In this document: positions 6,695 to 59,686 of the stretch, piece by piece
How the letters are laid out: every line of letters starts with the position of its first letter
Position numbering within the stretch: position 1 is the first letter of the stretch
Assembly (NCBI GenBank): GCA_016186795.1
Contig: JACPKY010000002.1
Span: 604,771 to 668,770 of the forward strand
Reading direction: 5' to 3'
DNA from: Candidatus Gottesmanbacteria bacterium
Lineage (GTDB): Bacteria > Patescibacteriota > Microgenomatia > 2-02-FULL-39-11
Length of the DNA: 64,000 nt
Notes under the pieces: generated by a model
Told to the model about the DNA's origin: nothing
The model's input: the letters and a program-made list of their open reading frames with translations, nothing else
Databases searched by the model: none
Program-made: the position numbers and the translations under genes

Positions 6695-7558
6695 ATGAAA
6701 GCAGGATATGTCGCAATTATCGGTCGACCAAATAGCGGGAAATCAACGCTTCTTAATAATCTTTTGGGGCAGAAAGTGTCTGTAACCTCGCCGAAACCGC
6801 AAACAACTCGTTTCTCAATCCAAGCAGTTTATAAAGACGAGAGGGGACAAATTATTTTTATCAATACACCTGGCGTATTTGGGAAAGTGAAAGATGCCCT
6901 TTCAAAGAAAATAAATCCTATCACCTCGCAAGTTCTCGGAAACGATGTGGATGTCGTTATCCATCTTGTTGATCACACACGAGATCGGGATTTTGAGGAA
7001 AATAAAATATTAGGTATTATTCGTACGGTTGATAAACCGAAAATTCTTGCCATAAATAAAAGCGACATCCAAAAACCATCTTTCCTTCCGCACTACAAAT
7101 TTATGGAGACAGAATACCATAAAACAATCATGATTTCGGCGCTATACAAATCGAATCTGAATTATCTTTTAGATAGCATTTTTGAACTTCTGCCAGAGCG
7201 AGAAAAGATCGTTGACGATGAAAATCTTCCTACTCCTGCACTCAACATTGATGGTAAAACGTTTCTCGCAGAAATTGTTCGTGAAAAAGCATTCCTCTTT
7301 CTTCGCAAAGAAGTACCATATTCGCTTACTACCAAAATCGATGCTGTGGAGGAAAAAGACGACAATATACTCTATATTAAAGGAAGAATTATTACATCTC
7401 ACGATAGATATAAAAGCATGATTATAGGCGCAAAAGGACGGATGATCAAAGAAATCGGCATGGCAGCACGGAAAGAACTGGAAACAGCAACGAATAAAAA
7501 AATATTTTTGGATTTAACTGTTGAAGTAAACCCGCACTGGTTCGATGAACTACTTTAG
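6695..7558 (+). CDS. era: GTPase Era
   Basis: P-loop AIIGRPNSGKSTLLN and a C-terminal KH domain. Confidence 0.85.
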   Translation: MKAGYVAIIGRPNSGKSTLLNNLLGQKVSVTSPKPQTTRFSIQAVYKDERGQIIFINTPGVFGKVKDALSKKINPITSQVLGNDVDVVIHLVDHTRDRDFEENKILGIIRTVDKPKILAINKSDIQKPSFLPHYKFMETEYHKTIMISALYKSNLNYLLDSIFELLPEREKIVDDENLPTPALNIDGKTFLAEIVREKAFLFLRKEVPYSLTTKIDAVEEKDDNILYIKGRIITSHDRYKSMIIGAKGRMIKEIGMAARKELETATNKKIFLDLTVEVNPHWFDELL

Positions 7559-8140: not shown

Positions 8141-9564
8141 GCGGATATCGTTTGCAGCCTTGCAATTGTCTCATTTTTCCCGAGAATTTCCATAGATTCA
8201 TTCAAGGGTGGCGAAACTTTCTTGCCTGTTATAGTTACTCTTAAAATCATGAAATACTCACTATTGGTAAGACCTGTAGCTTTTGCAACTTTTTGTAACT
8301 CTTCCCCGATCCGATCAGATTTCCACTGGGCAATTTGTATATTTTCTAATATATCTGCTGATTTACTAATCACGTCCTGATAGGATTCTAAATCGACTTC
8401 ATACTTTTGGGGTCTCGCATGGAAAAAACTGGAAATCGCATCGTATTCCTTCAATGTACTTATTCGCGGGGAAACAAGCGGAATAACCTTCCTAACTTTT
8501 TCATCAAACTCAGGAGTCGTTCCATACGAACTCATTGTTCTCAAAAGCGTTGTAAAACGTTTTGGATCTAGGGTTGCAAGATCTTGAATGTATTTTTTAT
8601 TGAGCCACTTCAATTTCTCTCTATCAAAAATAGGCGCTGTTGTTTTTATATCTTCAAGTTTAAAGTGCTTCACCATTTCAGAGAGAGAAAATTTGTCTCT
8701 CTCGTTAGGATCTGACCATCCCATAAGAGAAAGATAATTGATAAGCGCCTCGGGCAATATCCCTTGCTCTTTATACCATGATACCCACACCGGGTTTTTC
8801 CGTTTGGAAAGCTTACTTTTATCAGGATTTCGAAGTAGAGGCAGATGAGCAAAAACTGGAAGATCCCATCCGAATGCTTGATAGAGAAGTATATGCTTGG
8901 GTGTTGAGGAAATCCATTCCTCTCCCCGGATAACATGAGTGATTTTCATGAGATGATCGTCAACAACCACCCCTAAATGATATGTGGGAAATCCATCAGA
9001 TTTAATAAGTACCTGATCATCAATGAGCTTATTTTCAAACGAGATTTTCCCCCGCAAAACATCGGTAAACTCTGTAATTCCCTCCTCTGGAACATTGAGT
9101 CGAATAACGTATTTTTCGTTCTTTATTTTTGCCCGCACTTCTTCGGACTTTACTCTCTTGCACGTTCCGTCATACATAGGTGGAAGGCCTTGTGCTATTT
9201 GCTTTTCTCTCATCTTGGTCAAACGTTGGGGAGTACAAAAGCAGTAATATGCATTTCCTTTCTCAACTAGATTCTGAGCATAATTTTTATACAGTGATAA
9301 TCTCTCTGATTGCCTGTATGGAGAATATGGCCCTCCAATATCTGGACCCTCATCGTATGTCAATCCTAACCACTTCAGCGAAGAGAGAATTCTTTCTTCC
9401 GACCCTTTCACAAGTCGTGACCGATCCGTATCTTCTATCCGAATAATAAACTGACCGTTGTTCTTTTTTGCAAATACGAAATTAATAAGTGCCGTATACG
9501 CATTTCCGATGTGGAGATTTTCACCAGTTGGGGATGGGGCAATACGCGTTCGCACCGTCTTCAT
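8137..9564 (-). CDS. gltX: glutamyl-tRNA synthetase
   Basis: HIGH-region variant (PSPTGENLHIGNAYTA) and the KLSKRK motif. Confidence 0.85.
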   Translation of the reverse strand: MKTVRTRIAPSPTGENLHIGNAYTALINFVFAKKNNGQFIIRIEDTDRSRLVKGSEERILSSLKWLGLTYDEGPDIGGPYSPYRQSERLSLYKNYAQNLVEKGNAYYCFCTPQRLTKMREKQIAQGLPPMYDGTCKRVKSEEVRAKIKNEKYVIRLNVPEEGITEFTDVLRGKISFENKLIDDQVLIKSDGFPTYHLGVVVDDHLMKITHVIRGEEWISSTPKHILLYQAFGWDLPVFAHLPLLRNPDKSKLSKRKNPVWVSWYKEQGILPEALINYLSLMGWSDPNERDKFSLSEMVKHFKLEDIKTTAPIFDREKLKWLNKKYIQDLATLDPKRFTTLLRTMSSYGTTPEFDEKVRKVIPLVSPRISTLKEYDAISSFFHARPQKYEVDLESYQDVISKSADILENIQIAQWKSDRIGEELQKVAKATGLTNSEYFMILRVTITGKKVSPPLNESMEILGKNETIARLQTISA

Positions 9565-14228: not shown

Positions 14229-15731
14229 TTAGCCTAAACTTTTTCTAAGCATCCCTCCATATGAGAGAAGATTACTCATTTTTTTCTTTTCCTCTAAAGC
14301 TTTGAAAATCCGTCCAGAGAGAGCATAGTGTTCGAAATGAGTCCCTTTCCTTGGTCCCAATTCTTCTCCAATCTCTTTTTCCACTTCTTCAATATCTTCT
14401 AAGACCTCCTCCCATCCACCAAAGACGTTGGCAAGAGATGTCACATTCTCTTTATTGAGAAAGTATCCAGCTTTTATCATATCACTACGAAAATTCACAT
14501 AAAGAGGTAATATCTCAGTCCAAATCCCTTGGCGTTTTGCCTCGCGTATTCCTCTTCCTGTACCAATAAGCTCGGGTGGAATACCAATCGAATATAACGC
14601 TGCGGTGAATGGAATGGCTCGAGGAAGTATTATGCCACCAAACCCACGAGAATACCCAAAAAGACCAATATGTTGCATTCTTTCTCTTCGTCTTGCCAAC
14701 TGAGTACTTAAGGAGTTGATTATGGGCGCAAGTTTTTCAATCGACTGTTGATAATATTTTTCAAAAAATGGAATACTTTTTATTACAGCCTTCTTTTGAC
14801 TATCATGAATTGATATGGGGGTTTTACCAGGTAAGTACTTTTTGAGAAATTCAACAGCATCTCGAACTTGAGTTTTTTCGTAGTCATACCGAAAAGCGCT
14901 TTGCAGGGTAAGCGTTGCTACACCGCGATATTCTTCCACTCCCGTCTCAATTGAACTAGGTGAAATACCCCCTCTGAATGGTAAAGAACCAGTTCCTACC
15001 ATAGGGTAGAGCTTTACGCCTGTTTGACGTTCCAATTTCCGATATTCCCAAAGGGCAATTTTCAATGAAACGATTGTCGGAACCAGGCCGGAATTTAATG
15101 CGGGGTCGCTTCTTGCACAATACGGTCGAATATAGGCAGGAATCTTTCGAAAAACGTTACGATGAAGTACTATGTATCTTTTAAGTATTTCAGGAGATTC
15201 AACTATTTTGGCAACCTGCTCAAAAAGTGGAATGATCTCAATGGACTTCATAGATTCCCGCATTTTCAAAAGCTTGTGTTCAAGACTCACCAAATGCTGA
15301 AATGCCTCTTGAATGTCGATAATTTCCTGAGCACTTTCCGTCAAAGGAAGGATGGTTTCAAAAATAGGAGGATCGTCAAATCCAAGACTCTGCGACAGCT
15401 GACTACTTGTTATCATCACCATAAATGCCCGTGCCAAACGAAATTGTTTCTCCACACGCGGATTGGGAATTCGAAACGTAAGAAACTTGTCCCGACCAAG
15501 AGGATGTTTTTGAAAATATTCAAGATGCTGATGCAAAAGTCTATCAACAACAGCTTCGTCAACATACTTTCCCTCCCAATCCCAGTTATACTCATCAATT
15601 CCAAGATCGGAGAAACACAAGAAACACTCTTTTAGTTCGGCGGCTGTTGAGACAAATGCCCGACTATGCCAGTATGGCTTTCCTGCATTATCGGGATGCT
15701 GTGTCGCCATCCCTGTTGGAATTTTTCTCAT
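14229..15731 (-). CDS. archaeal-type phosphoenolpyruvate carboxylase (PepcA)
   Basis: The N-terminus (MRKIPTGMATQHPDNA) matches the archaeal-type PEPC signature IPRxMSTQHPDN. At about 500 aa it is far shorter than bacterial Ppc. Confidence 0.6.
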   Translation of the reverse strand: MRKIPTGMATQHPDNAGKPYWHSRAFVSTAAELKECFLCFSDLGIDEYNWDWEGKYVDEAVVDRLLHQHLEYFQKHPLGRDKFLTFRIPNPRVEKQFRLARAFMVMITSSQLSQSLGFDDPPIFETILPLTESAQEIIDIQEAFQHLVSLEHKLLKMRESMKSIEIIPLFEQVAKIVESPEILKRYIVLHRNVFRKIPAYIRPYCARSDPALNSGLVPTIVSLKIALWEYRKLERQTGVKLYPMVGTGSLPFRGGISPSSIETGVEEYRGVATLTLQSAFRYDYEKTQVRDAVEFLKKYLPGKTPISIHDSQKKAVIKSIPFFEKYYQQSIEKLAPIINSLSTQLARRRERMQHIGLFGYSRGFGGIILPRAIPFTAALYSIGIPPELIGTGRGIREAKRQGIWTEILPLYVNFRSDMIKAGYFLNKENVTSLANVFGGWEEVLEDIEEVEKEIGEELGPRKGTHFEHYALSGRIFKALEEKKKMSNLLSYGGMLRKSLG

Positions 15732-15741
15732 AAACACCAAA

Positions 15742-15775
15742 AACCTCACCTCTTTCAAAGGGTGAGATTTCTCAC
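15742..15775 (-). terminator. rho-independent terminator downstream of recJ
   Basis: Minus-strand hairpin CTCACC-ctttgaaaga-GGTGAG followed by GTTTTTGGTGTTT. Confidence 0.4.
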
Positions 15776-19052: not shown

Positions 19053-19948
19053 CGTTTTTTCCTCTCTTCCCAAAAAACAAGAAGTGGAGCTGCGTTAAAA
19101 ATTGAGGAATACGTTCCAGAGACTATTCCAATAAGAAGAGCGACCACAAACCACCGTATAGATTCTCCCCCAAAGAGAAGTAAACTAAAAAGCGTAAAAA
19201 TGACGGTCAAGGATGTTGCCAGAGATCTAGCAAGCGTCTGAATGATCGAAACATTGACGATATGTTCAAAAGATTGCGAGGGCATCTTTTGTAAGTTTTC
19301 CCGGATTCGATCAAAAACAACAATCGTGTCATGAACAGAAAATCCCATAATTGTTAAAAGGGCTGTAATAAATAATGTATCAATTTCAACGTGAAAAAAA
19401 TGGCCAAAGATGGAAAAAATACCAACGACAACGAGTATGTCATGGATAAGTGCTGCAACGGCGCATATTCCAAACTTCACGGATGAATACGGTTTCGGAA
19501 CCTGCCGGAATGCCAATGCGATATAGATAATAATAGCAACAGATGCAATGAGAACTGCTTTCATAGCGTTTGCCGTTGTCTCACTCCCGATCGTTGGACC
19601 AACTGTCTCATACCGTAATTGGGTAATATCCCCGTACCCATTTTTCAAAGCGTTCTGCAGTTCCCTATTTTTGATAGTATCAATGGGCTTTAGACGGAGA
19701 AGATAGGTATTTTCACCCGACTTCTGAATCGAGGCAATTTCCACACTCTCTTTCTCAACCACTTGCCGGATCGATTCAGCAGAATGTGTTTTTTGTGGCG
19801 AAATCTGAAATTCAAGAAGCGTTCCCCCGGTAAAATCAATTGCGGGGCGAAGACCCCAAAAAACGAGCGCAACAATACCGGGAATAATAACTAATCCCGA
19901 AATCAGAAAGAATATTTTCTTTTTCCCTATAATGTTTGGTTCACTCAT
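19049..19948 (-). CDS. secF: protein translocase subunit SecF
   Basis: SecD/F family topology; paired with secD immediately upstream. Confidence 0.8.
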   Translation of the reverse strand: MSEPNIIGKKKIFFLISGLVIIPGIVALVFWGLRPAIDFTGGTLLEFQISPQKTHSAESIRQVVEKESVEIASIQKSGENTYLLRLKPIDTIKNRELQNALKNGYGDITQLRYETVGPTIGSETTANAMKAVLIASVAIIIYIALAFRQVPKPYSSVKFGICAVAALIHDILVVVGIFSIFGHFFHVEIDTLFITALLTIMGFSVHDTIVVFDRIRENLQKMPSQSFEHIVNVSIIQTLARSLATSLTVIFTLFSLLLFGGESIRWFVVALLIGIVSGTYSSIFNAAPLLVFWEERKKR

Positions 19949-21473: not shown

Positions 21474-22049
21474 TTATGAGACGAGCTCTTCTTCGTCACC
21501 AATGACCATGATGCGTGACCCCCGAAGAATCTCAAGAACAAATGGATCACGTCGTTTCTTTCTAAACTCAAACTCTTCCTCACTCATAACTGTGTAGTTA
21601 ATTTCTCTCTCTCGCCGCACCTCTTCTTCTTTTACAATTTGTGAAAGTTCGGGAAGCACTATCTTTCCAACAACCAGAAGATCTACTGAGTTGGTTCCTT
21701 TCGTAGATACCCGAGCAAAACTCCCAGCAACCATTGCAAATTTAACTTTTCCAAGTCTTACCTTGTTTTTGATAATTTCCCCGCCCATCCCAGATGATTT
21801 TACAATCAACTCAAGAAGGTCAAAGTACAGTGGGTAATCTTTTCTGAGAGCATAAAAGAGTCGATTGGCTCTATGTTCTTTACTCATCAAGCCAATCTTT
21901 TCCAAATGAGCAAGCTCACGCCTCACGGCGTTTATCTCCTCACTTGTACGGCGGACGATTTCTCGAACATGAAATATTTTCCCCGGGGAAAGAAAAAATA
22001 GTTGTAATATCTTTACCCGGACTCGAGAAACGATAAGATCTTTTAACAT
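21474..22049 (-). CDS. winged-helix HTH fused to a minimal nucleotidyltransferase (MNT) domain
   Basis: N-terminal ArsR-like HTH and the nucleotidyltransferase motif GSFARVSTKGTNSVDLLVVG. Confidence 0.5.
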   Translation of the reverse strand: MLKDLIVSRVRVKILQLFFLSPGKIFHVREIVRRTSEEINAVRRELAHLEKIGLMSKEHRANRLFYALRKDYPLYFDLLELIVKSSGMGGEIIKNKVRLGKVKFAMVAGSFARVSTKGTNSVDLLVVGKIVLPELSQIVKEEEVRREREINYTVMSEEEFEFRKKRRDPFVLEILRGSRIMVIGDEEELVS

Positions 22050-25080: not shown

Positions 25081-25145
25081 AGAAGCGGCTAGAGGCGAGT
25101 ATAGCACCCATTGACAGAGAAAGTAAAGATGTGTATATTCCGGGT

Positions 25146-25208
25146 ATGAATATGAATCTCTCAAACCTTTCACTTCTCCTTCTTGGAGAAGGTGAATTCG
25201 TGGTTTGA
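25146..25208 (+). CDS. leu operon leader peptide (MNMNLSNLSLLLLGEGEFVV)
   Basis: A 20-codon ORF with six Leu codons, including four consecutive (ctt ctc ctt ctt), followed by a terminator abutting the leuA start. Confidence 0.5.
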   Translation: MNMNLSNLSLLLLGEGEFVV

Positions 25209-25270
25209 GAGAATAGAAAAAAACAAACAACTGAATAATAAAATGACCTCTCAAACCAGAGAGGTTTTTT
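25159..25270 (+). promoter_or_regulatory. transcription attenuator of the leu operon
   Basis: Segment 1 is tctcaaacc (25159-25167), segment 2 ggtttgaga (25202-25210) and segment 3 tctcaaacc (25249-25257). The terminator is acctctc-aaacca-gagaggt plus T6 (25246-25270). Segment 2 can pair with either segment 1 or segment 3, the mutually exclusive alternatives of a classic attenuator. Confidence 0.55.
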
Positions 25271-25275
25271 GATGC

Positions 25276-26778
25276 ATGAAAAAACAAAAAATTTTTATCT
25301 TTGATACTACCCTTCGTGATGGCGAGCAAACGCCTGGAGCAAAACTCAATACGAATCAAAAAGTAACACTGGCAAGACAGCTCGAAGTGTTAGGCGTTGA
25401 TGTTATTGAGGCGGGATTTCCAATTTCATCACCTGGTGATTTCCGCTCAGTGGTGGAAGTTTCAAAGGTAATTAAGAAGGCTACAATCTGTGGACTTACC
25501 CGTGCAATACCCAAAGATATCGAGGTTGCGGCTGATGCTCTACGATTTGCCAAACGTCCCCGAATACATACCGGAATTGGTGCATCTGATATCCATATCA
25601 AATATAAATTTAAATCTACCCGCGAAGAAATTCTCGCTCGAGGAATTTCTGCAGTAAAATATGCGAAAAGATTTGTTGGCGATGTAGAATTTTATGCCGA
25701 AGATGCGGGACGAGCAGAGAATGAATTTCTCGCAAGAATGGTTGAGGAGGTGATCAAAGCTGGAGCAACCGTTGTGAATATTCCAGATACAACCGGATAC
25801 TGTTTCCCTGAGGAATTCGGCGCAAAAGTAAAATATCTTTTCGACCATGTGACAAATATCGATCGAGCAATTATTTCTGTCCATTGCCACAATGACATAG
25901 GCCTTGCGACAGCCAATACTATTACCGGGATAGCAAATGGGGCAAGACAAGTGGAAGTAACAGTGAATGGTATCGGAGAACGGGCTGGAAATACTTCCTT
26001 GGAAGAAGTTGTTATGGCTATATATACAAGACGTGAGTATCTCCCCTACCAGACAAATATCAAAACTTCCGAAATCGCCAAAACAAGCAAAATGGTTTCT
26101 CAAATCATGGGAATACCAGTCCAACCCAATAAAGCGATTGTGGGAGCAAATGCATTTGCACATTCATCCGGCATACACCAAGATGGGGTTTTGAAGAGGC
26201 GGGAAAACTACGAAATTATTGATCCAAAAATTGTCGGCTTTGACAAATCGCATATTGTGTTAACTGCAAGATCCGGACGGGCGGCTCTTCGGCACAAGTT
26301 AGAGACGATTGGAATAAAAATGGAGAAAAAAGAACTCGATATGCTCTATGAAAAATTCCTTCGACTTGCAGATATCAAGAAAGAAATCTATGAAGATGAT
26401 TTACGATTTTTGGCAGGTCAAAAAGAAGAAACAAATCACAAAAAAGTAAAACTTGTACTTATCCAAGCAGTGTCAGGGAATAAAAACATTCCAACGGCAA
26501 CAGTACGATTATTAATTAACAGTCAAACCCGAGAGGCAGTAGGTATTGGGGATGGACCAATTGATGCAAGTTTCAAGGCAATCGATGCATGTATTGGGAA
26601 AAAATATTCACTGGAACACTTTATGATTCAGGCTGTTACAGTGGGATCTGATGCTATGGCAAATGTCAATGTGGCACTTAAAAAAGGAAATAAAATATTT
26701 TGGGGGACCGGAACAAATACCGACACGATTGTTGCGGCTGTTCTTTCCTATATTGATGCACTGAATAAATTTCTATAA
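25276..26778 (+). CDS. leuA: 2-isopropylmalate synthase / citramalate synthase family, with C-terminal LeuA_dimer regulatory domain
   Basis: HMGL-like N-terminus ([10 protein letters not shown]) and a C-terminal [13 protein letters not shown] regulatory domain. Confidence 0.8.
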
Positions 26779-41609: not shown

Positions 41610-42047
41610 TTACGAGCAGCCGCAGTTTCCGCCGCAACCACATCCTCCTTCTTCATGAGCCATAGGACGCGTAATATAGGCAACTGCATCTATTTCAACA
41701 AGAGCATCTTTGGGAAGTTTCGCAACTTGAACTGTTGCCCGTGCTGGATAGGGCTTTTGAAAAAATGAAGCATATACTTCATTCATCTTTCCGTAGTCAT
41801 CCATGCTTTTAAGATACACAGTTGTTTTAAGAATCGTTTGTAAACTTCCGCCAGCCTCTTCCAAGACATACTCGAGATTTGTTAATGCTTGACGAGTTTG
41901 TTCTTCAATTGCCCCTTTGACAAACTCCTTCGTTTTCGGATCAACACCGATATGACCGGAACAAAAAATTAAATCACCCAAGACAATCCCTGGTGAATAT
42001 GGGCCAATTGCCGCAACACCCTTTTTCGCAACAATTTCTTTTTTCAT
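41610..42047 (-). CDS. ridA: RidA (YjgF) family enamine/imine deaminase with a Cys/Gly-rich C-terminal tail
   Basis: RidA core followed by HEEGGCGCGGNCGCS. Confidence 0.7.
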   Translation of the reverse strand: MKKEIVAKKGVAAIGPYSPGIVLGDLIFCSGHIGVDPKTKEFVKGAIEEQTRQALTNLEYVLEEAGGSLQTILKTTVYLKSMDDYGKMNEVYASFFQKPYPARATVQVAKLPKDALVEIDAVAYITRPMAHEEGGCGCGGNCGCS

Positions 42048-43918
42048 AAGCTTTTCTCCTTTCGGTGGTTTTTCACTTGATAATACAATTCGTTGTACCC
42101 AGCAACATATGCATTCATCGATGCCACTATTATATCAGGAGATGTTCCTTTCTCGACTACTTGCGTACCATTTTGCGCCTGAAGCACCATTGTCACCTCT
42201 ACAGTTGAATCACTCCCAGTCGTTGGAATCTCAACGGTAAAATCTGAGAGTTTAAATTTCAACCCATCGTGTTTTGCGATAACCTTATTGATTGCAGAAA
42301 TTGCTGCATCGACCGGTCCAACCCCATCACTTTGTGCATGATACTTCTTCCCATGCAATAAAACATCAATGGTTGCTTTGGGCCGTTTATTTTTGGTATC
42401 CCAAATTTGAAAATCGGTAAGTGTGAGATATTTATTTTTTGTCTCCTGCTGAATAATTCCTTCAAGAATAGACTGAAGATCTGCACGTCCTATGACTTTT
42501 CCTTTATCTTTTATAAACTGACGTAAACGAAGATATGTTTCCTCTAAATCTCGTTTGGGTAACTTTATACCAAACTCGTCTTTCACCACGTTTTGTATCC
42601 GACTCTTTGTAGGAAGGGAGGAAAAAAGAATTTTTTCTTTGTCCCTCACTCCTTGTGCACGAAGCGCAAACAGATTCCCAGAAATAACTCTTTTCACTTC
42701 CTTCTCATCTGGTTCAATCGTTGGAGGTTCGGCAAGTACCTTCAGAGTTGCTGCTGGATCTTTCAAGCCAGCTCCTGTTGCAACACAGACAACACGATCA
42801 TCTCTTTGAATTGTTCCATCTCGTAACAGTTTCTTTAATGCAACAATAGTGGTTGCGGATGATGGCTCAATGTAGAGAGCTTCCAAATGAGCAAGTTCCT
42901 GCTGAGCTGCAAGCGTTTCCTCATCAGAGACCGAAACGACCATTCCATGTGAACGATTGAGCGCTTCTATAACCTTGACTCCATCAAGAGGATTCCCAAC
43001 TGCGATTGCCGAATTTATGGTCTTTGGATTTTTAACGGGTTTGATAAAAAACTCGCTCTTATCTGTTTTTTGAAATATCGAATGACACCCATAGGCCTGC
43101 ACTGCAATAAGTTTTGGAAGTTTTTCGATAAATCCTAAGCGGTAATACTCCCAAAACCCCTTCCAGATAGAAGCTAAATTTGTCCCCATTCCAACAGGAA
43201 CAATGACCCAGTCAATTATTGCCTCCCAAGTACTTTCTGCCAACTCAAACCCAAGAGACTTCTGACCCTCAGACCGAAAGACATAATCTCCCGCAAGGTA
43301 ATACCCGTATGTTTTGGCCGTCTTTTCTGCAAGCGTATTTGCCTCAGTGTATGTTCCACGTACCTGAATAACTTTGGCACCATACGATAGACTTTGTGCC
43401 AATTTTCCCCTTGGAGTGTTCTCGGGTACAAAGACAAAACACGAAAGACCTGCTTGAGCAGAGTAGGCTGCAACCGATGCAGCCATATTTCCGGTTGAAG
43501 CAACACAAACAGATGAGTATCCCAGTTCTTTTGCTTTATTGATTTCAATGAAACTTCCCCGATCCTTAAATGCTCCGGTTGGGTTAAGCCCTTCATTTTT
43601 AATAAATAGTTTGGGAATCCCGATTTTCTCACCAAGTCGTCGTGCCTGATGCAAAGGTGTTCCCCCTTCCTGCAGACTAATAAGATTGTCGCGGGTCTTT
43701 AAAGGGTAAAAATCAAGATATTTCAGTGTTTTTGATGGAGTATTTTTGAGTATGTATGCATTAACCTGCTTTTTCAGTTCGTCATAATCGTATGTTACAT
43801 CAAGGGGGCCTCTACACGAGAGACAACGTGACGTAGTCTTTAGCTCATCGGTCTTTTTATGGCAAGCAACACAGGAAAGATAGTATAGATTCTTATTCAT
43901 AAAAGAATTCAAATTCAT
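42044..43918 (-). CDS. threonine-synthase-like PLP enzyme fused to a C-terminal LeuA/CimA-type allosteric (LeuA_dimer) domain
   Basis: N-terminal Zn-ribbon (CxxC...CxxC) and ThrC-like fold-II PLP core (GGTPL...NPTGAFKDRG, EGQKSLGFE, TGAGLKDP). The C-terminal about 190 aa parallel the leuA C-terminus in this window (DGVGPVDAAISAIN against [13 protein letters not shown], plus a GSDS/GSDA block). Confidence 0.55.
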   Translation of the reverse strand: MNLNSFMNKNLYYLSCVACHKKTDELKTTSRCLSCRGPLDVTYDYDELKKQVNAYILKNTPSKTLKYLDFYPLKTRDNLISLQEGGTPLHQARRLGEKIGIPKLFIKNEGLNPTGAFKDRGSFIEINKAKELGYSSVCVASTGNMAASVAAYSAQAGLSCFVFVPENTPRGKLAQSLSYGAKVIQVRGTYTEANTLAEKTAKTYGYYLAGDYVFRSEGQKSLGFELAESTWEAIIDWVIVPVGMGTNLASIWKGFWEYYRLGFIEKLPKLIAVQAYGCHSIFQKTDKSEFFIKPVKNPKTINSAIAVGNPLDGVKVIEALNRSHGMVVSVSDEETLAAQQELAHLEALYIEPSSATTIVALKKLLRDGTIQRDDRVVCVATGAGLKDPAATLKVLAEPPTIEPDEKEVKRVISGNLFALRAQGVRDKEKILFSSLPTKSRIQNVVKDEFGIKLPKRDLEETYLRLRQFIKDKGKVIGRADLQSILEGIIQQETKNKYLTLTDFQIWDTKNKRPKATIDVLLHGKKYHAQSDGVGPVDAAISAINKVIAKHDGLKFKLSDFTVEIPTTGSDSTVEVTMVLQAQNGTQVVEKGTSPDIIVASMNAYVAGYNELYYQVKNHRKEKSL

Positions 43919-44421
43919 TTAAAAAGAGCTGTTCTTCCAGTACGGACAAATTCAATAATGCGATATTCTTTCATATTTTCGTAAAAAGCGTCAATTTTTT
44001 CCTCTCCACCGGTCACCTCAACTAAGAATGTATCTTTGGTCATATGGAGAACCTTTGCGCGAAAGTGCTCTATTATTTTTAATATTTCACCTTTTTCTCC
44101 CTTTCCTTTAATCTGAATTTTGGCAAGAGCCAGCTCGCGACTGATAAGTTTTTCATCGGCTACTTTCTCAACACGTAAAACATTTACCAGTTTGGCAACT
44201 TGTTTACACATATTGGCTACTTGGTCTCCGTTCCCAGAGACGGTGATGGTAAATCGCGTGACATTTGGTATCTCTGTATACCCAACGGTAGCGGTTTCGA
44301 TGTTGAACATTTTTCGACGAAAAAGCCAGAGAATTCGGAAAAAAACTCCGGGAGTATTTTCACTCCAAATGATAATTGTTGAAAGATTTTTTGCCATATT
44401 ACTTATCCTTGGGAGAAACAA
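43915..44421 (-). CDS. ilvH: acetolactate synthase small (regulatory) subunit
   Basis: N-terminal ACT domain; the gene overlaps ilvB. Confidence 0.8.
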   Translation of the reverse strand: MFLPRISNMAKNLSTIIIWSENTPGVFFRILWLFRRKMFNIETATVGYTEIPNVTRFTITVSGNGDQVANMCKQVAKLVNVLRVEKVADEKLISRELALAKIQIKGKGEKGEILKIIEHFRAKVLHMTKDTFLVEVTGGEEKIDAFYENMKEYRIIEFVRTGRTALFK

Positions 44422-46129
44422 TCATATCCGCAATTCCAGCTCCCGCTGGAATCATAGGAAACACGTTTTCTTCGGCTTCAACTACAAACTCTACTAAAAA
44501 AGGTCCTCTCTTTTTCCGTGCTTTGGAAATTGCCTCACGAGTTTCTTTAAATGTTTTTGCTTTTAAAGAGGGAATCCCAAACCCGTCACAGAGCTTTTGG
44601 AAATTTGGGTTTTTAAGCTTCACCTCAGAGTAATTCCCTTTGTAAAATAACTCTTGCCATTGCCGAACCATTCCCAAGAAATTATTATTCAGAAGCGCTA
44701 TTTTTACTTCAAGTTTTTCTTGAACGATTGTTGCCAATTCCTGGATGGTCATTTGAATTCCTCCATCTCCTATAACAATCCACACCTCACGATTGGAATC
44801 TGCACTTTTCACTCCCATTCCGGCGGGAAGTGCAAATCCCATAGTACCTAGTCCTCCTGAAGTGATGTGAGTGTTGTAATCATTAAACGTATAATATCGA
44901 GCAGCATACATCTGATTCTGCCCTACATCGGCAACAATAGTTGCTTTATTTTTAGTTTGTCTCGATATTTCCGCAATCACTTGCGCGGACTTTAAGTGCG
45001 GAGCATGCAGTTCTTTCTTATACACTTTTTCCGTTTCCTCGCGCTTCCACTGATGAAACCGCTTGAGCCACTGGGGATTCCGACGTTTGGAAAGCTTTGG
45101 AAGAATCTGCTCAAGGACCATTTTTGCATCTCCAACCACTCCAAGTGTTGGCTTTACGTTTTTCCCTAACTCAGACGGATCAATATCGATATGGATTATT
45201 TTTGCCTGTTGTGCGTACTTTGCGACATTCCCCGTCACGCGATCATGAAATCGCATTCCAACAGCAAGAATAACATCGGCTTCATTTGGGGCCCTGTTTG
45301 CGGCAACATTCCCGTGCATTCCCGGCATACCCATAAACAACCGATGTGTTGATGGAATTGTTGAAAGACCAAGCTGGGTGAGTGTTACCGGAATATCTTG
45401 TTTTTCTGCAATTTGCAAAAGTGTCTTCCCGTCACCTGAAAGAAGCATCCCATGTCCTGCGATAATAAGAGGACGAACGGCAGAATTTAACATGGATACT
45501 ATCTTTTCAACTTCTTTTGGTGTTGCTTGTAGTCTTACTCTTCCCTCAAGATGTTTTTTGGGCAAAGGAATATGAAATTCGGCATAGGCAGTTTGCGCAT
45601 CCTTTGTGATATCAACAAGTACTGGTCCGGGGCGCCCATGTGATGCAAGATAAAATGCCTCGTACAGACTTGGTGCAATATCTTCTGCTTTTGTCACCAA
45701 ATAATTGTGTTTAGTTACGGCAAGTGTCACACCCAAAACATCAGTTTCTTGAAACGCATCGGTTCCTAAAAGTGGCGATGGAACTTGTCCAGTTATACAA
45801 ACAAGAGGAACACTATCAAGCATGGCATCGGCAAGACCGGTCACAAGATTTGTTGCACCAGGTCCACTTGTTGCAAAACAAATGCCAGGTATACCGTTTG
45901 CCCATGCGTACCCTTCTGCAGCGTGAGCTGCTCCTTGCTCGTGACGAACTAAGATATGGTGGAGCTCCGGATATTTATACAAGGCATCGTAAATCGGAAT
46001 ATTTGCTCCGCCCGGATACCCAAATATTGTTCGGACACCGTGGCGAAGCAAACACTCACAGACTATATCTGCCCCTTGCACTTTTTCACCTTCTTTTAAT
46101 CTGGTTTTTAGTTTCGTTTTTTGCTCCAT
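44399..46129 (-). CDS. ilvB: acetolactate synthase large subunit (TPP-dependent)
   Basis: TPP-enzyme N-terminal, central and C-terminal domains (GDG...N motif). The start is ATG at 46129, with an alternative GTG at 46081 preceded by GAAGGTGA. Confidence 0.85.
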   Translation of the reverse strand: MEQKTKLKTRLKEGEKVQGADIVCECLLRHGVRTIFGYPGGANIPIYDALYKYPELHHILVRHEQGAAHAAEGYAWANGIPGICFATSGPGATNLVTGLADAMLDSVPLVCITGQVPSPLLGTDAFQETDVLGVTLAVTKHNYLVTKAEDIAPSLYEAFYLASHGRPGPVLVDITKDAQTAYAEFHIPLPKKHLEGRVRLQATPKEVEKIVSMLNSAVRPLIIAGHGMLLSGDGKTLLQIAEKQDIPVTLTQLGLSTIPSTHRLFMGMPGMHGNVAANRAPNEADVILAVGMRFHDRVTGNVAKYAQQAKIIHIDIDPSELGKNVKPTLGVVGDAKMVLEQILPKLSKRRNPQWLKRFHQWKREETEKVYKKELHAPHLKSAQVIAEISRQTKNKATIVADVGQNQMYAARYYTFNDYNTHITSGGLGTMGFALPAGMGVKSADSNREVWIVIGDGGIQMTIQELATIVQEKLEVKIALLNNNFLGMVRQWQELFYKGNYSEVKLKNPNFQKLCDGFGIPSLKAKTFKETREAISKARKKRGPFLVEFVVEAEENVFPMIPAGAGIADMIVSPKDK

Positions 46130-46130
46130 A

Positions 46131-46170
46131 AAACAAAAAACCTCTCGTTTCTTGAGAGGTTTCAATCTTT
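46131..46170 (-). terminator. attenuator terminator immediately upstream of ilvB
   Basis: Minus-strand AACCTCTC-aagaaac-GAGAGGTT followed by TTTTTGTTTT, ending at the ilvB ATG. Confidence 0.55.
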
Positions 46171-46180
46171 ATTCTTACTT

Positions 46181-46276
46181 TTATTTCTTTATTCTTGCCT
46201 TTATTACCTCCCAAGAATATCCCTGCACAATTGCAAGGACAATAACTGAGAGAATAATAAGGTTATTTTTGATCAT
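46181..46276 (-). CDS. ilv operon leader peptide (MIKNNLIILSVIVLAIVQGYSWEVIKARIKK)
   Basis: A 31-codon ORF with a run of 11 Ile/Leu/Val codons in 13 positions, lying between the promoter and the terminator. Confidence 0.5.
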   Translation of the reverse strand: MIKNNLIILSVIVLAIVQGYSWEVIKARIKK

Positions 46277-46286
46277 GACTGGTGGA

Positions 46287-46315
46287 ACTATAACAAAGTG
46301 ATACTTTACTGTCAA
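46287..46315 (-). promoter_or_regulatory. sigma70-type promoter of the ilv leader/operon
   Basis: On the minus strand, a consensus -35 TTGACA, a 17-nt spacer and a -10 TATAGT. Confidence 0.55.
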
Positions 46316-46325
46316 TAGGCATGTT

Positions 46326-47855
46326 TTAGAAAAGTTCTTCTTCCCTAGGTCTGTATTGGAGAGCTTCTGCAATAAATCTTGGTTCAACGATTTTTTCTTC
46401 CTCTAAATCTGCGATAGTTTGCGCAAGTTTTATTATCCGGTGGTAACTTCTCGCCGATAACTGTAATGAAACTACAGCTTTTTTTAAAAGTGATAGACAC
46501 TCGGTTGATAAAGGAATAAATTCTTTTATTTCCTTTGACCGTAAATCACTATTACAGGTAAATGGAGTTCCCTTAAACCGTCTCAATTGTATATCTCGTG
46601 CTTTTTGAACTCGTTTCCGAACTATTTTCGATGAATCTAGTCTCTTTTCACCTGTCAACGCTTCGATTTTTACCTGTGGCAGATGTATATGAAGATCAAT
46701 ACGATCATAAATAGGACCTGATACTCGCTTTGTGTACCGTATAATCTGCCCGGCAGGACAGGTACACTTCTTGGTAAGATCTCCAAAATTTCCGCATGGG
46801 CATGGATTTGCTGCAGCAACAAGCATGAATTTCGCCGGATAGGTAATTGTTCCAGATGCTCGTGAAATAGTCACAATACCATCTTCAATTGGCTGCCGAA
46901 GAGCTTCAAGTACAGATCTCGGAAATTCAGGAAATTCATCCAAAAATAAAACACCGCGATGCGCAAGAGAAATCTCTCCTGGAATTGGACGAGCCCCTCC
47001 TCCAATAAGTCCAATTCGAGATGTCGTATGATGTGGGGCTCGAAATGGTCGTGACGAAATAAGCGAGCGACCTTGAGAAAGATTTCCCGTGATTGAATAT
47101 ATTTTTGTCACCTCAAGAGCTTCATTTTCTGTCAAATCGGGTAGTATTGCCGGAAACGCCCGTGCAAGCATTGTTTTTCCAGCCCCTGGTACTCCTTTGA
47201 AAAAAATATTATGACCTCCGGCTGCAGCAATCTCAAGCGCACGCTTCCCTTGCTCTTGCCCAAGTACATCAGAAAGATCAAACTCTGCGCTTTTTTCCTC
47301 ATGAAAAGTATGAAACGAAACATGAGGTAAAGGAGAAATACTGCTCGTCCCTGTTATATGTCGAAAAAGTGCCAGAAGTGATTGGCACGGATAAACAGAT
47401 ATGTGATCAATAATTGCTGCTTCTTTCGCATTGATTTCAGAAAGATAAAGACCGGTAAATTTTTTCTCTTTTGCAAGGAGTGTAACTGGAAGAACTCCGT
47501 TGGTATGTGTAAGCGACCCATCAAGTGACAATGCCCCATACGCAAGTATCCGAGAATCTACTTTCGGAAGCTGGCCTGAGGCAATGAGAATGCCAAGAGC
47601 AATTGGCAAATCATAGGCCGGTCCATCTTTTGGAATATCAGCTGGTGCCAGATTGACGGTAATTCTATGTGGAGGAAACTCTGCACCGGAGTTTCTTATG
47701 GCTGAGCGTACTCTTTCTTTTGATTCTTCAACTGATTTTGAGGGAAGACCAACAATGGTAAAGGATGGAAGACTTTTGGTTGATATATCAACTTCGACAA
47801 TAATTGGGATTGGTTCAAGACCGACTGTTGCACCAGAATGTATTTTTGCAAACAT
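46326..47855 (-). CDS. comM: YifB/ComM family Mg-chelatase-like AAA+ ATPase
   Basis: N-terminal Lon-like domain, AAA+ Walker A (GVPGAGKT) and a C-terminal domain. Confidence 0.8.
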   Translation of the reverse strand: MFAKIHSGATVGLEPIPIIVEVDISTKSLPSFTIVGLPSKSVEESKERVRSAIRNSGAEFPPHRITVNLAPADIPKDGPAYDLPIALGILIASGQLPKVDSRILAYGALSLDGSLTHTNGVLPVTLLAKEKKFTGLYLSEINAKEAAIIDHISVYPCQSLLALFRHITGTSSISPLPHVSFHTFHEEKSAEFDLSDVLGQEQGKRALEIAAAGGHNIFFKGVPGAGKTMLARAFPAILPDLTENEALEVTKIYSITGNLSQGRSLISSRPFRAPHHTTSRIGLIGGGARPIPGEISLAHRGVLFLDEFPEFPRSVLEALRQPIEDGIVTISRASGTITYPAKFMLVAAANPCPCGNFGDLTKKCTCPAGQIIRYTKRVSGPIYDRIDLHIHLPQVKIEALTGEKRLDSSKIVRKRVQKARDIQLRRFKGTPFTCNSDLRSKEIKEFIPLSTECLSLLKKAVVSLQLSARSYHRIIKLAQTIADLEEEKIVEPRFIAEALQYRPREEELF

Positions 47856-54781: not shown

Positions 54782-55755
54782 GGTGATTTTTGAAAAACCA
54801 TTCGGATGACATCTTCAATTTCTACATCTTCTATATTCATATCATCAACAGGTAATGTGGTAAGAACTTTTGAGGCTATACTCTTTGCTTCCTTTTTAGG
54901 AACGACTAAAACAATCTTCGTGGGGGTAAAAGATTTAAGTTGTCCAAAACTACTCACGTCACTTTCTTTTACTCGTCTATTGAACTCAATTGTAAGAATT
55001 TTTGTATCTGCATATCGTTCTATGAGCTTTTCGAAATCACCATCATAGACAATCCTTCCCTGATCGATAACTAAAATCCGTCTACACAGTTGCCGTACAT
55101 CAGACATATAGTGGCTGGTCAATAAAATTGTCGCTTTGTATCGGACATTATAATCCGCAATAAAGTCACGCATTTTTTTTTGCATGACAACATCCAATCC
55201 TATGGTTGGTTCATCTAAAAAAAGTACTTTTGGACGGTGAATAAGGGCTGCAATAAGCTCCATCTTCATTCTTTGCCCAAGAGAAAGTTGTCGAACTGGC
55301 ACACGAATAAGGTCAGATATTTCCAATAGTCCAGAGAGTTCATTGAGCGTTTCAGAAAATGCACTATCTGAAATATCGTAAATTTCCTTATTAAGTTTAA
55401 ATGTGTCAAATGCCGGTAAATCCCACCATAATTGGTTTTTCTGCCCCATGATAAGACTAATTCTTTTTAGGAATTCATCTTTCCGTTCGTATGGAGTAAA
55501 TCCAAGCACCGATATGTTACCAGATGTAGGATAGAGAAGACCCGATAAGCATTTCAACGTAGTTGTTTTTCCGGCTCCATTTGGCCCGATAAATCCGACA
55601 AGCTCACCCTCCTGAATAGTAAATGAAATATCCTCTACCGCATGGACTGAGATGGTTTCACGAGCAACAACAGAACGAAGAGAAGAAAATATTCCAAAAT
55701 CACGCTTATATGTTTTGTAGATTTTTGAAAGGTTCGATACGGAAATTGTCATCAT
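54778..55755 (-). CDS. ABC transporter ATP-binding protein
   Basis: Walker A (GPNGAGKTT), signature (LSLGQR) and Walker B (LFLDEPT) motifs. Confidence 0.8.
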   Translation of the reverse strand: MMTISVSNLSKIYKTYKRDFGIFSSLRSVVARETISVHAVEDISFTIQEGELVGFIGPNGAGKTTTLKCLSGLLYPTSGNISVLGFTPYERKDEFLKRISLIMGQKNQLWWDLPAFDTFKLNKEIYDISDSAFSETLNELSGLLEISDLIRVPVRQLSLGQRMKMELIAALIHRPKVLFLDEPTIGLDVVMQKKMRDFIADYNVRYKATILLTSHYMSDVRQLCRRILVIDQGRIVYDGDFEKLIERYADTKILTIEFNRRVKESDVSSFGQLKSFTPTKIVLVVPKKEAKSIASKVLTTLPVDDMNIEDVEIEDVIRMVFQKSP

Positions 55756-55796: not shown

Positions 55797-55835
55797 AGAA
55801 GAACTCTCTTCACGAACGAAAGAGAGTTCTTCATA
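55797..55835 (-). terminator. rho-independent terminator downstream of hup
   Basis: A 13-bp perfect stem, GAAGAACTCTCTT-tcgttcgtg-AAGAGAGTTCTTC, followed by TGTTTACTT. Confidence 0.5.
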
Positions 55836-56299: not shown

Positions 56300-57826
56300 C
56301 TAGTGAACTGTCTCTTGAATGCGAAGTTCCCGAATGAGAGTAATTTTGATTTGACCTGGAAATGTCGGGAATTTCTTCTCGATTTCCTCCCCAATTTTAT
56401 GTGCCGTGACCGCACTTTGGGCATCATCAAGTTTTCCGGGATCCACAATGACGCGGAGTTCTCTCCCTGCCTGGAGCGCATACGCCTTTTCAATTCCAGG
56501 AAATGTTGTTGCAGTATCCTCAAGCGTTTTAAGCCGTTTCACATACTCTTCAATATCCTCATATCGAGCACCAGGCCTTGCACCTGAAATAGCATCAGCA
56601 ATATACACAATAACTGCCTCAATAGAGGGGAACGGAATATCCTCATGATGTGCTGCAACGCAATCGATGACAGAGCTCGGCATAGCAAATTTCTTCAAAT
56701 ACTCAACTCCTAGTTGAACATGTGATCCATCTTTATCGGTAATGATTTTTCCGATATCATGGAGAAGACACCCAAGCCTCACAATATTGACATCAGCGCC
56801 TAATTCATTGGCGATGGCAATACCGATTTTTGTCTCTTCAAGTGTATGAACAATCATATTTTGTCCGTAAGAAAATCTATATTTGAATCTTCCAAGAAGT
56901 CCGATTAAGTCAGTCGGCATATTGTATACGCCAACCGCATGGCATAACTTTTCTCCCTCTGTGTACATTATTTTTTCTATCTCTTTCCTGGTTTGTTCAA
57001 CGAGTTCTTCAATCCGTACAGGCTGGATACGTCCATCTCGCAGAAGTTTCTCAAGTGTTACACGCGCAATCTCCCGTCTGACTGGGTCAAACGATGAGAG
57101 ACGAATAACACCCTCTTCATCGAGATCAACATCGACTCCAGTTGCCATTTCAAAGGCGCGAATATTTCTTCCTTCTTTTCCGATAATCCGTCCTTTAAAA
57201 TCTTCATCACTTATTTTGATTGTCGAGACGGTATATTCCGCAACATAATCTGTCGCACCGTGTCGCATAGCATCGATAATAATCTCTCGAGCCTTTGTTT
57301 CTGCCTCCAGCTTTATCTGATCTTGTGCGTCTTTCACTTTTTTGGCAATTTCTTCCTTAAGTTTTTCTTCAACGGCCGCCAAAATGAGTTCTTTTGCCTC
57401 CTCCCGCGTGAGGTGAGCCACTTTTTCAAGCTTCATGATAAGATCTGAGCGAAGCTTATCGACATCTGCTAGTCGTTTAAAAACTCCTTCTTCTTTTCCT
57501 ATTACCTGCCGTTCTTTATTTCCAAGCTCGGTAATTTTCTTATCAATACTTTCTTCTTTTGCAACGAGCCGCTGTTCGATATTTAGTGCTTCCTGGCGTA
57601 CTCTTCTTGATTCTTCTTCAGCCTCACGCTTAATTCTCAGTGCTTCATCTTTCGCTTCCAAAATAATTGTTCGAGCATCTTGCTGTACCGTAATAGATGC
57701 ATGTGGATCAGAAACTGGGGTTGTAGATTTCGCTGCCCCTTTCGGAACTCCCCCATCTTCCTTTGTTCCCAACTGTTTCTCAATTTTATCCAGTCGTGTG
57801 AGTATGACTTTTAGAACTTGTAACAT
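56300..57826 (-). CDS. rny: ribonuclease Y
   Basis: Coiled-coil region, KH domain and HD domain (HDIGK). The N-terminal TM helix is apparently absent. Confidence 0.8.
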   Translation of the reverse strand: MLQVLKVILTRLDKIEKQLGTKEDGGVPKGAAKSTTPVSDPHASITVQQDARTIILEAKDEALRIKREAEEESRRVRQEALNIEQRLVAKEESIDKKITELGNKERQVIGKEEGVFKRLADVDKLRSDLIMKLEKVAHLTREEAKELILAAVEEKLKEEIAKKVKDAQDQIKLEAETKAREIIIDAMRHGATDYVAEYTVSTIKISDEDFKGRIIGKEGRNIRAFEMATGVDVDLDEEGVIRLSSFDPVRREIARVTLEKLLRDGRIQPVRIEELVEQTRKEIEKIMYTEGEKLCHAVGVYNMPTDLIGLLGRFKYRFSYGQNMIVHTLEETKIGIAIANELGADVNIVRLGCLLHDIGKIITDKDGSHVQLGVEYLKKFAMPSSVIDCVAAHHEDIPFPSIEAVIVYIADAISGARPGARYEDIEEYVKRLKTLEDTATTFPGIEKAYALQAGRELRVIVDPGKLDDAQSAVTAHKIGEEIEKKFPTFPGQIKITLIRELRIQETVH

Positions 57827-59609: not shown

Positions 59610-59686
59610 CGGGGATTGGCGCAGTTGGCTAGCGCACACGCATGGGGTGCGTGGGGTCGGCAGTTCAAGTCTGCCATCCCCGACCA
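59610..59686 (+). tRNA. tRNA-Pro (anticodon GGG)
   Basis: Hand-folded cloverleaf: acceptor CGGGGAT/ATCCCCG, D-stem GCGC/GCGC, anticodon stem CACGC/GCGTG, loop AU-GGG-GU with U33 and G37, T-arm GGCAG-TTCAAGT-CTGCC, discriminator A and an encoded CCA. Confidence 0.85.

Follow-up and report, generated by a model that had tools for sequence, protein, structure and literature searches.

A predicted leader-peptide attenuator rich in isoleucine, leucine and valine codons upstream of the ilv operon of a Candidatus Gottesmanbacteria genome

How does a bacterium of the candidate phyla radiation (CPR, or Patescibacteria), whose members are usually characterized as auxotrophic symbionts that have reduced ribosomes, control an operon for the synthesis of isoleucine, valine and leucine? 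To our knowledge, almost nothing is known about gene regulation in this group. The question was raised by a 64,000-nucleotide stretch of the Candidatus Gottesmanbacteria contig JACPKY010000002.1 (the whole stretch is called the window below), in which a preliminary description of the sequence had placed a leader peptide rich in Ile, Leu and Val (ILV) and a terminator upstream of ilvB. Our computational follow-up argues that this element is a ribosome-mediated (leader-peptide) transcription attenuator, which would tie the operon ilvBN-(thrC-like)-ridA-ilvECD to the supply of charged Ile-, Val- and Leu-tRNA; from the sequence comparisons and folding models we put the probability of this reading at about 0.85. 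It would be a lineage-specific ILV attenuator of a well-known kind, and apparently the first to be reported for the CPR group.

The leader was compared with those of relatives for which upstream DNA was at hand (L082, L083, L162, L164, L165/L170, L166, L167/L171, L168 and L169; IlvB 64-84% identical). Each sequence element of the ilv leader was confirmed to be present where the preliminary description had placed it. The elements, followed by the first gene of the operon, are as follows:

46310..46315, minus strand: -35 hexamer TTGACA of the ilv leader promoter; a TTGACA-like hexamer stands at the same position in 9/9 relatives (TTGACA/G/T; TTGAAA in L167)
46287..46292, minus strand: -10 hexamer TATAGT with TG upstream, after a spacer of 17 nucleotides (nt) and 10 nt ahead of the leader ATG (gap of 6-11 nt in relatives)
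46181..46276, minus strand: leader open reading frame (ORF) MIKNNLIILSVIVLAIVQGYSWEVIKARIKK, 31 sense codons and TAA (ATG at 46276, TAA at 46183-46181), without a Shine-Dalgarno sequence
46226..46261, minus strand: regulatory codon run LIILSVIVLAIV, codons 6-17, Ile/Leu/Val at 10/12
46246..46262, minus strand: segment 1, the 5' arm of the anti-antiterminator helix 1:2 in minimum-free-energy (MFE) structures, overlapping ILV codons 6-11
46218..46241, minus strand: inner hairpin UGUCCUUGCA-AUUG-UGCAGGGAUA of 10 base pairs (bp), nested within helix 1:2 in MFE structures
46198..46217, minus strand: segment 2 UUCUUGGGAGGUAAUAAAGG, with segment 1 as default partner and segment 3 as alternative partner (antiterminator)
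46164..46197, minus strand: A-rich unstructured spacer with short tandem repeats (AAGAATAAAGA twice), containing the leader stop codon
46149..46160, minus strand: segment 3 ACCUCUCAAGAA, antiterminator partner of segment 2, overlapping the terminator 5' arm
46130..46163, minus strand: intrinsic terminator, 10-bp stem GAAACCUCUC/GAGAGGUUUU, 7-nt loop and U-tract UUUUUUGUUUU, -13.1 kcal/mol
44399..46129, minus strand: ilvB, acetolactate synthase large subunit, first operon gene (TIGR00118, 692 bits)

The promoter, described earlier as near-consensus (TTGACA-17-TATAGT, 46315-46287), agreed with the consensus at 11 of 12 positions and was the top promoter-like site within 37-50 kb. The 31-codon ORF stood as described, and the earlier count of 11 branched-chain residues in 13 positions had to be corrected to 10, in NLIILSVIVLAIV. 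The proposed antiterminator was found to form between CUUGGGAGG and CCUCUCAAG over 9 bp, one of them G-U, and to be extendable to 12 bp; it is the stretch UUCUUGGGAGGU of segment 2 that is able to pair in this alternative way with segment 3. The strong terminator reported to end at the ilvB start does so: at the DNA level GAAACCTCTC-AAGAAAC-GAGAGGTTTT spans 46163-46137, the T-tract TTTTTTGTTTT runs as far as 46130, next to the ilvB ATG at 46129. When both strands of the window were scanned for a short ORF with at least 8/10 ILV residues and then a terminator, the ilv leader was the sole site.

An orthologous leader was found ahead of the first ilv operon gene in 9/9 relatives. The first gene was ilvB in three of them and ilvD in six, and the upstream neighbours varied; the element thus belongs to the ilv operon, since it is retained whatever the first gene or the upstream neighbour. 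Its parts follow one another in the same order, namely a TTGACA-like -35 box, a -10 box, an ORF with an I/L/V run, an A-rich spacer and a CCUCUCA...GAGAGG-U7 terminator. The relatives' ORFs, of 14-35 codons and with ATG or GTG starts, kept the ILV enrichment in all nine cases, and the leader peptides gave the consensus ..I-L-S-I-I-V-L-V-I-G-Q-G-F-S-W-E... Pooled over the 10 orthologues, the runs comprised 121 residues (51 Ile, 27 Leu, 21 Val, 11 Ser and 11 others; 82% ILV), with Ile dominant and Phe, Met, Trp and Ala nearly absent. The reading frame was kept, N-terminal indels in the leader alignment were multiples of 3 nt, and substitutions fell largely within I/L/V.

The distance from segment 2 to segment 3 stayed at 34-54 nt among Gottesmanbacteria-type leaders; the spacer repeats differed (AAGAATAAAGA in the window, GATAACA in L083, AAGAAC in L164, AGAAATTAAAAAT in L165 and L166). 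In L083 (733-800), L164 (4972-5103, plus strand), L166 (6165-6269) and L169 (6183-6318), additional sequence separates the attenuator terminator from the first gene. In L164 it is a 130-nt GC-rich double hairpin (-65 kcal/mol, z = -7.9), to which Rfam gave no match at gathering score and which may represent an inserted repeat or another RNA regulator.

Because loop lengths differ, a MAFFT alignment of whole leaders misplaced the terminator 3' arms. For the count of pairs, actual stretches of nine leaders were joined end to end without gaps, each leader contributing a core of 59 nt, then 14 nt from segment 3 and 10 nt from segment 4. In the terminator-state structure 90.9% of the cells were paired and six pairs carried double changes, which was equalled in 0/500 shuffles; with the registers slid by 1-3 columns, just 36-59% were paired. 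Helix 1:2 (alignment columns 11-18 with 50-57) was 90% paired, and four of the ten pairs of the inner hairpin had changed on both sides, C-G and A-U in the window standing against U-A and C-G elsewhere. The terminator helix was 96% paired across relatives, with a double change from U-A to C-G in L164. The competing antiterminator 2:3 was 85.9% paired, and three of its pairs had changed on both sides (U-A in the window, C-G elsewhere). Both alternative helices are hence conserved with compensatory changes.

As for stability, the 171-nt leader folded with an MFE of -44.6 kcal/mol (z = -4.08), and none of 200 shuffles was as stable. The default fold was a long helix 1:2 enclosing the 10-bp hairpin, alongside the terminator 3:4. 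Taken in isolation, helices 1:2, 2:3 and 3:4 had energies of -27.7, -14.7 and -13.1 kcal/mol in the ilv leader and of -29.4, -13.8 and -12.7 kcal/mol in a Leu leader that precedes leuA in the same window (described below), in both cases in the classical order. The switch was then simulated on the transcript before segment 4 exists, with a 28-nt ribosome footprint masked. With the footprint at codons 2-16, segment 3 was sequestered (paired fraction 0.66-0.72); with the footprint at codons 17-27, where it covers segment 2, or at the stop codon, the paired fraction was ~0.2, and at codons 28-31 it was back up at 0.33-0.69. Without a ribosome the MFE structure at this stage was 1:2, with segment 3 mostly unpaired. 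The leaders of L083, L082, L162, L168 and L169 showed an equal switching pattern. The preliminary description had proposed computational tests of its attenuator reading, among them the folding of the leader and the search for its ORF in relatives, and the reading passed every one of them.

The mechanism which we propose is the following. Transcription would start at or just before the leader start codon, and a ribosome would initiate without a Shine-Dalgarno sequence. With Ile, Leu and Val plentiful, it would pass the regulatory codons, segment 2 being ribosome-covered or re-paired to segment 1; segment 3 would be free, the 3:4 terminator would form and RNA polymerase would halt just before ilvB. 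If any one of the three amino acids were scarce, the ribosome would stall at codons 6-17 and occlude segment 1 and the inner hairpin, segment 2 would pair with segment 3 before segment 4 is made, no terminator would arise and the operon would be transcribed. Untranslated RNA, including read-through from the upstream gene comM, would adopt 1:2 and 3:4 by default and terminate.

Several points weigh against this mechanism. The simulation separated the two states poorly in L164 and L166, and the antiterminator loop is unusually long (~45 nt). On the full-length transcript at equilibrium a stalled ribosome did not displace the terminator, which kept a probability of at least 0.67; the switch must accordingly be kinetic, like classical attenuators, because the terminator wins at equilibrium once the transcript is complete. 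As a test of the switch, this equilibrium fold under a masked ribosome was dropped, attenuation being co-transcriptional, in favour of folding before segment 4. The leader lacks a Shine-Dalgarno sequence, and four relatives have GTG starts. Beside the observed elements, their conservation, the alternative pairings and the covariation, three points stand as predictions: where transcription begins, that the leader ORF is translated and that the operon responds to amino acid supply. Lastly, when the candidate regulatory codons of the Streptomyces coelicolor ilvB leader were mutated, regulation was unchanged (PMC1262725).

With regard to initiation, the start codon lay 35-41 nt from the start of the -35 box in 11/11 ilv and leu leaders, the transcription start being placed from promoter geometry. 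No Shine-Dalgarno motif was present in any of the leaders examined, in which the start codon came 6-11 nt past the -10 box; for these two reasons the ilv leader ORF is probably translated as a leaderless mRNA, or with a 5' untranslated region of at most 4 nt. The 44 ATG-initiated genes of the window were surveyed for the same arrangement. A TATAAT-like hexamer (at least 5/6) ended 5-12 nt before the ATG in 15 of the 44, against 1.9 expected (~8-fold), and any Shine-Dalgarno-like 4-mer was found in just 16. Leaderless or near-leaderless mRNAs seem, by these counts, to be common in this Gottesmanbacteria genome. Examples of genes with a -10 box near the ATG are those at 139, 2858, 3614, 32379 and 35918 on the plus strand and at 9564, 23296, 51931 and 55755 on the minus strand.

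A second leader of the same design is located before leuA:

25111..25275, plus strand: Leu leader before leuA, promoter TTGACA-17-TATATT, ORF MNMNLSNLSLLLLGEGEFVV at 25146-25208, leuA ATG at 25276
25247-25268 and U-tract, plus strand: leu terminator CCUCUCAAACCAGAGAGG-U6, in a leader that has helices 1:2, 2:3 and 3:4

The terminator core had been called nearly identical to that of the ilv leader, and this was borne out, as the pattern CCTCTCAA-N(3-9)-GAGAGGTTTT was found exactly twice in the window, at ilv and at leuA, with 0 expected (100 shuffles). Both terminators contain ACCTCTCAA and GAGAGGTTTTTTG, and they are closer to each other than either is to its own orthologue. Leu-rich leaders of like design, with a CUCUC/GAGAG core, also precede leuA in L170 (MRSNSLLNLALLLLGEV; 19685-19848, minus strand) and L171 (MTGISLLNPDLSLLLKV; 21482-21642, minus strand). 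A hidden Markov model (HMM) of the ilv leader, whose training set included the window ilv leader, matched the window leu leader with E = 8e-5 and gave no significant match to the leu leaders of L170 or L171. The earlier suggestion of a shared, possibly duplicated module was therefore only partly supported, in that the sequence identity is real and the relatives' leu leaders are unmatched; common descent, gene conversion or a shared design constraint may each account for the likeness. Such a constraint is conceivable because segment 1 consists of Leu/Ile/Ser codons and segment 3 has to mimic it. Moreover, the CUCUC/GAGAG core may be a common terminator motif in this genome. It recurs in a very strong 14-bp hairpin, GAAGAACUCUCUUUCGUUCGUGAAGAGAGUUCUUC (55798-55832, minus strand), which makes it less compelling that the ilv and leu terminators arose by duplication. 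This hairpin lies ~470 nt past an RNase Y gene (stop at 56300) and ~40 nt before an ABC-ATPase gene (start at 55755).

The distribution of such leaders was surveyed in 161 ilv loci (1.07 Mb) taken from genomes and metagenomes, with a short ORF holding at least 8/10 I/L/V residues, and an intrinsic terminator within 120 nt, upstream of ilv genes as the criterion. Of the pairs of ILV leader and terminator, 58 lay on the operon strand and 3 on the other. They came from Bacteroidota, Anaerolineae, Acidobacteriota, Verrucomicrobiota and others, with a like layout of ORF and terminator and with different peptide and RNA sequences. The four-segment signature CUCUCA/UGGGAGG/CCUCUCA/GAGAGG was confined to Gottesmanbacteria-type loci in 1.3 Mb of ilv loci from many phyla. 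Another Microgenomates locus, L173 (Candidatus Microgenomates), whose IlvB is 53% identical, carries two leaders with CCGCC/GGCGG cores, at 1203-1320 and 6708-6815 (plus strand). One is a Leu leader (MKQKINNQKLALLLAAITGR) and precedes a leuA-like gene; the other is of the ILV type (MKKQSLIIVNILINQP) and precedes an aminotransferase-ilvB operon. Both end in CCGCC...GGCGG terminators, the stop codon directly abuts the antiterminator 5' arm, and the arrangement is a simpler two-hairpin variant. The idea that the CCUCUC segments are a general anti-Shine-Dalgarno mimicry was considered and rejected on account of these different cores.

Leader-peptide attenuators have been described for Proteobacteria, Actinobacteria and some Firmicutes (PMC2965389; PMC1262725). 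Full-text literature searches for attenuation or leader peptides in CPR, Patescibacteria or Gottesmanbacteria found no report, and for leader peptides of Bacteroidetes they gave nothing of direct relevance. Vitreschak and co-workers are said to have noted, in 2004, some cases in Bacteroidetes/Chlorobi and Thermotogales. The preliminary description had called the mechanism unexpected in this kind of genome; this holds as far as the CPR is concerned, but the mechanism itself, to judge by the 58 pairs against 3, extends beyond Proteobacteria and Actinobacteria.

The leaders were also compared with known RNA families, among them the T-box riboswitch, which is recognised by a stem I with specifier loop and by the T-box sequence in its antiterminator bulge and is the usual regulator of ilv-leu operons in Firmicutes. 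Rfam in gathering mode returned 0 matches over the whole window. This zero could not be read as absence, because a tRNA-Pro(GGG) at 59610-59686 (plus strand), found with ARAGORN and scoring 54.9 bits against the Rfam tRNA model in sensitive mode, was missed in gathering mode; the leaders were rescanned in sensitive mode. No Rfam family then reached its threshold on the ilv leader, nothing relevant was found on the leu leader, and no T-box match was obtained on the ilv leader even at E up to 10. Against what would be expected of a T-box, the ilv leader has only ~150 nt, and these are occupied by the ORF. The best sub-threshold matches were Phe_leader (RF01859; 26.9 bits against a gathering score of 55) and His_leader (RF00514; 22 against 49). 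Both matches span the full model, with a similar hairpin-plus-terminator layout, but the regulatory codons of these families are for other amino acids and the ilv leader is not a member of either.

These results bear on the alternative that the element is a translation-independent RNA switch, in which helix 1:2 and the inner hairpin, on binding of a protein, tRNA or metabolite, would control terminator formation, the ORF being incidental. The nucleotides of the inner hairpin and segment 2 are indeed more conserved than a purely coding constraint demands, translation of the leader ORF is something we infer from sequence, and the S. coelicolor ilvB leader mentioned above behaved non-classically (PMC1262725). 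Yet the promoter-to-start distance is fixed, the frame is kept and an in-frame ILV run occurs in 10/10 leaders, including the divergent L169; such a run is also found in leaders of unrelated sequence, in L173 and in other phyla. Together with the absence of any T-box or other Rfam family at threshold in sensitive mode, and with a specificity that fits the codons (ILV for ilv, Leu for leu), this makes a switch of that kind improbable.

Leader-peptide attenuation was also weighed against a reading in which the ORF encodes a small hydrophobic membrane peptide (a regulatory micro-protein, for instance, or one resembling a type I toxin), has a terminator of its own and is linked to ilv by coincidence. 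The ILV-rich stretch does superficially look like a transmembrane segment, and the GQGFSWE-like motif downstream of it looks conserved at the peptide level. However, the runs have only 9-16 residues (the whole L169 ORF has just 14 codons) and are 82% I/L/V, with F/M/W/A/G nearly absent; for a membrane helix they are too short and too restricted in composition. The C-terminal residues, for their part, follow the RNA pairing: L162 has G for E, L167 has R for W, and the hairpin carries double changes. The GQGFSWE conservation therefore lies at the RNA level. A role of GQGFSWE as a nascent-peptide arrest motif was rejected on the same ground, as its substitutions go with RNA pairing and not with peptide conservation. 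Since, moreover, the element is always found immediately upstream of the ilv gene that comes first, be it ilvB or ilvD, and has a Leu-only analogue before leuA, we consider the membrane peptide very improbable.

Equally little credit was given to a mainly translational control, in which GAGAGG of the terminator 3' arm would be the Shine-Dalgarno sequence of ilvB and the hairpin would mask ribosome binding. The start codon of the first gene does follow GAGAGG at a distance of 11-13 nt in the window (at both ilvB and leuA), in L082 and in L167. But a perfect U-tract follows the stem in every relative, the first gene is 19-130 nt further downstream in L083, L164, L166, L168 and L169, and L165 carries a separate AAGGAG; masking would at most add a layer of control.

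Very improbable, too, is a mere intrinsic terminator of comM/yifB accompanied by a chance ORF and promoter: comM, the gene upstream of the leader, does end at 46326 with no terminator of its own before the leader, and it neighbours the leader in L166 and L168 as well (in L164 and L165 it is more distant, separated from the leader by other genes), yet promoter, ORF and terminator are kept behind a different upstream gene in L082, L083, L162, L167 and L169, a near-consensus promoter stands between comM and the hairpin, the terminator 5' arm has a conserved and covarying alternative partner, and the hairpin may also stop comM read-through, which leaves the rest of the element unexplained. The preliminary description had itself named this terminator, with an ilvB start elsewhere, as what would count against the attenuator. 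The ilvB N-terminus, however, could be aligned to its orthologues from residue ~2-9 on, and the start codon therefore lies downstream of the hairpin.

Among known attenuators, that of ilvBNC in Corynebacterium glutamicum likewise has an ILV-rich leader peptide before ilvB; its leader ORF is on a leaderless mRNA, and three competing hairpins act as anti-antiterminator, antiterminator and terminator (PMC11857589; PMC1262725), the same roles as here. The likeness is one of design only. The element described here comes from a CPR phylum, has a longer leader, a nested inner hairpin and an A-rich tandem-repeat spacer in its ~45-nt antiterminator loop, and its leaderless initiation is proposed from promoter geometry, not mapped. 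The ilvGMEDA and leu attenuators of E. coli and Salmonella work by 1:2, 2:3, 3:4 logic with an intrinsic terminator; they too have a multivalent ILV run for ilv and a Leu-only run for leu, and their energy hierarchy of helices is also found here. Unlike the leader studied here, those of enterobacteria begin with a longer 5' untranslated region and have an ORF served by a Shine-Dalgarno sequence; there is no similarity at the sequence or Rfam level, and gene order and operon content differ.

The operon downstream of the leader runs in the order ilvB-ilvN-(ThrC-like/LeuA_dimer)-ridA-ilvE-ilvC-ilvD, down to 37906, and its enzymes are common to Ile, Val and Leu synthesis. The proteins of the window are NCBI MBI2617319-58. 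The IlvB clade comprises ~50 sequence clusters at 70-85% identity, and all the named ones are labelled Gottesmanbacteria or Patescibacteria. The third gene of the operon (42044-43918, minus strand) encodes a 624-residue protein whose pyridoxal phosphate (PLP) domain is closest to genuine threonine synthases (PDB 2zsj, E = 9e-74), with only ~1e-9 to 1e-13 against IlvA-type dehydratases. It is fused to a LeuA_dimer regulatory domain, the RidA gene comes next (41610-42047, minus strand), and the fusion is kept at the same operon position in L163-L168; the equivalent operon of the L173 locus has a canonical IlvA (PALP and Thr_dehydrat_C) instead. From this context the fusion is a candidate replacement of threonine dehydratase, which would supply 2-oxobutanoate under a feedback domain borrowed from LeuA/CimA. 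Elsewhere in the window, an archaeal-type phosphoenolpyruvate carboxylase (14229-15758, minus strand; TIGR02751, 468 bits) adjoins an aminotransferase and a short aspartyl-tRNA synthetase (AspRS) of 457 residues, whose matches to the aspartate-tRNA ligase model (590 positions) fall into two separate stretches.

A wider picture can be drawn more tentatively, with the odds somewhat against its holding as a whole. Gottesmanbacteria and related Microgenomates may run complete branched-chain amino acid (BCAA) pathways under classical ribosome-sensing control by way of leaderless leader ORFs, which would imply transcription-translation coupling in the CPR, and a single four-segment module with the CUCUC/GAGAG core may have given rise to both the ilv and the leu attenuator of a genome, duplication or gene conversion keeping the copies alike.

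The attenuator itself offers a concrete and testable regulatory element in CPR/Patescibacteria. The survey indicates that ILV leader peptides are widespread for ilv operons beyond the textbook Proteobacteria and Actinobacteria; they are likely to go unannotated in metagenome-assembled genomes, because they are not represented in Rfam. The leader is also a compact candidate for an amino-acid-responsive switch and a possible marker of BCAA limitation in groundwater metatranscriptomes. For the organisms, the element indicates that scavenging is not the only source of Ile, Val and Leu in these Gottesmanbacteria, which synthesize the three amino acids themselves and regulate that synthesis, and, if the attenuator is true, both ribosome-RNA polymerase coupling and leaderless initiation would operate in this lineage.

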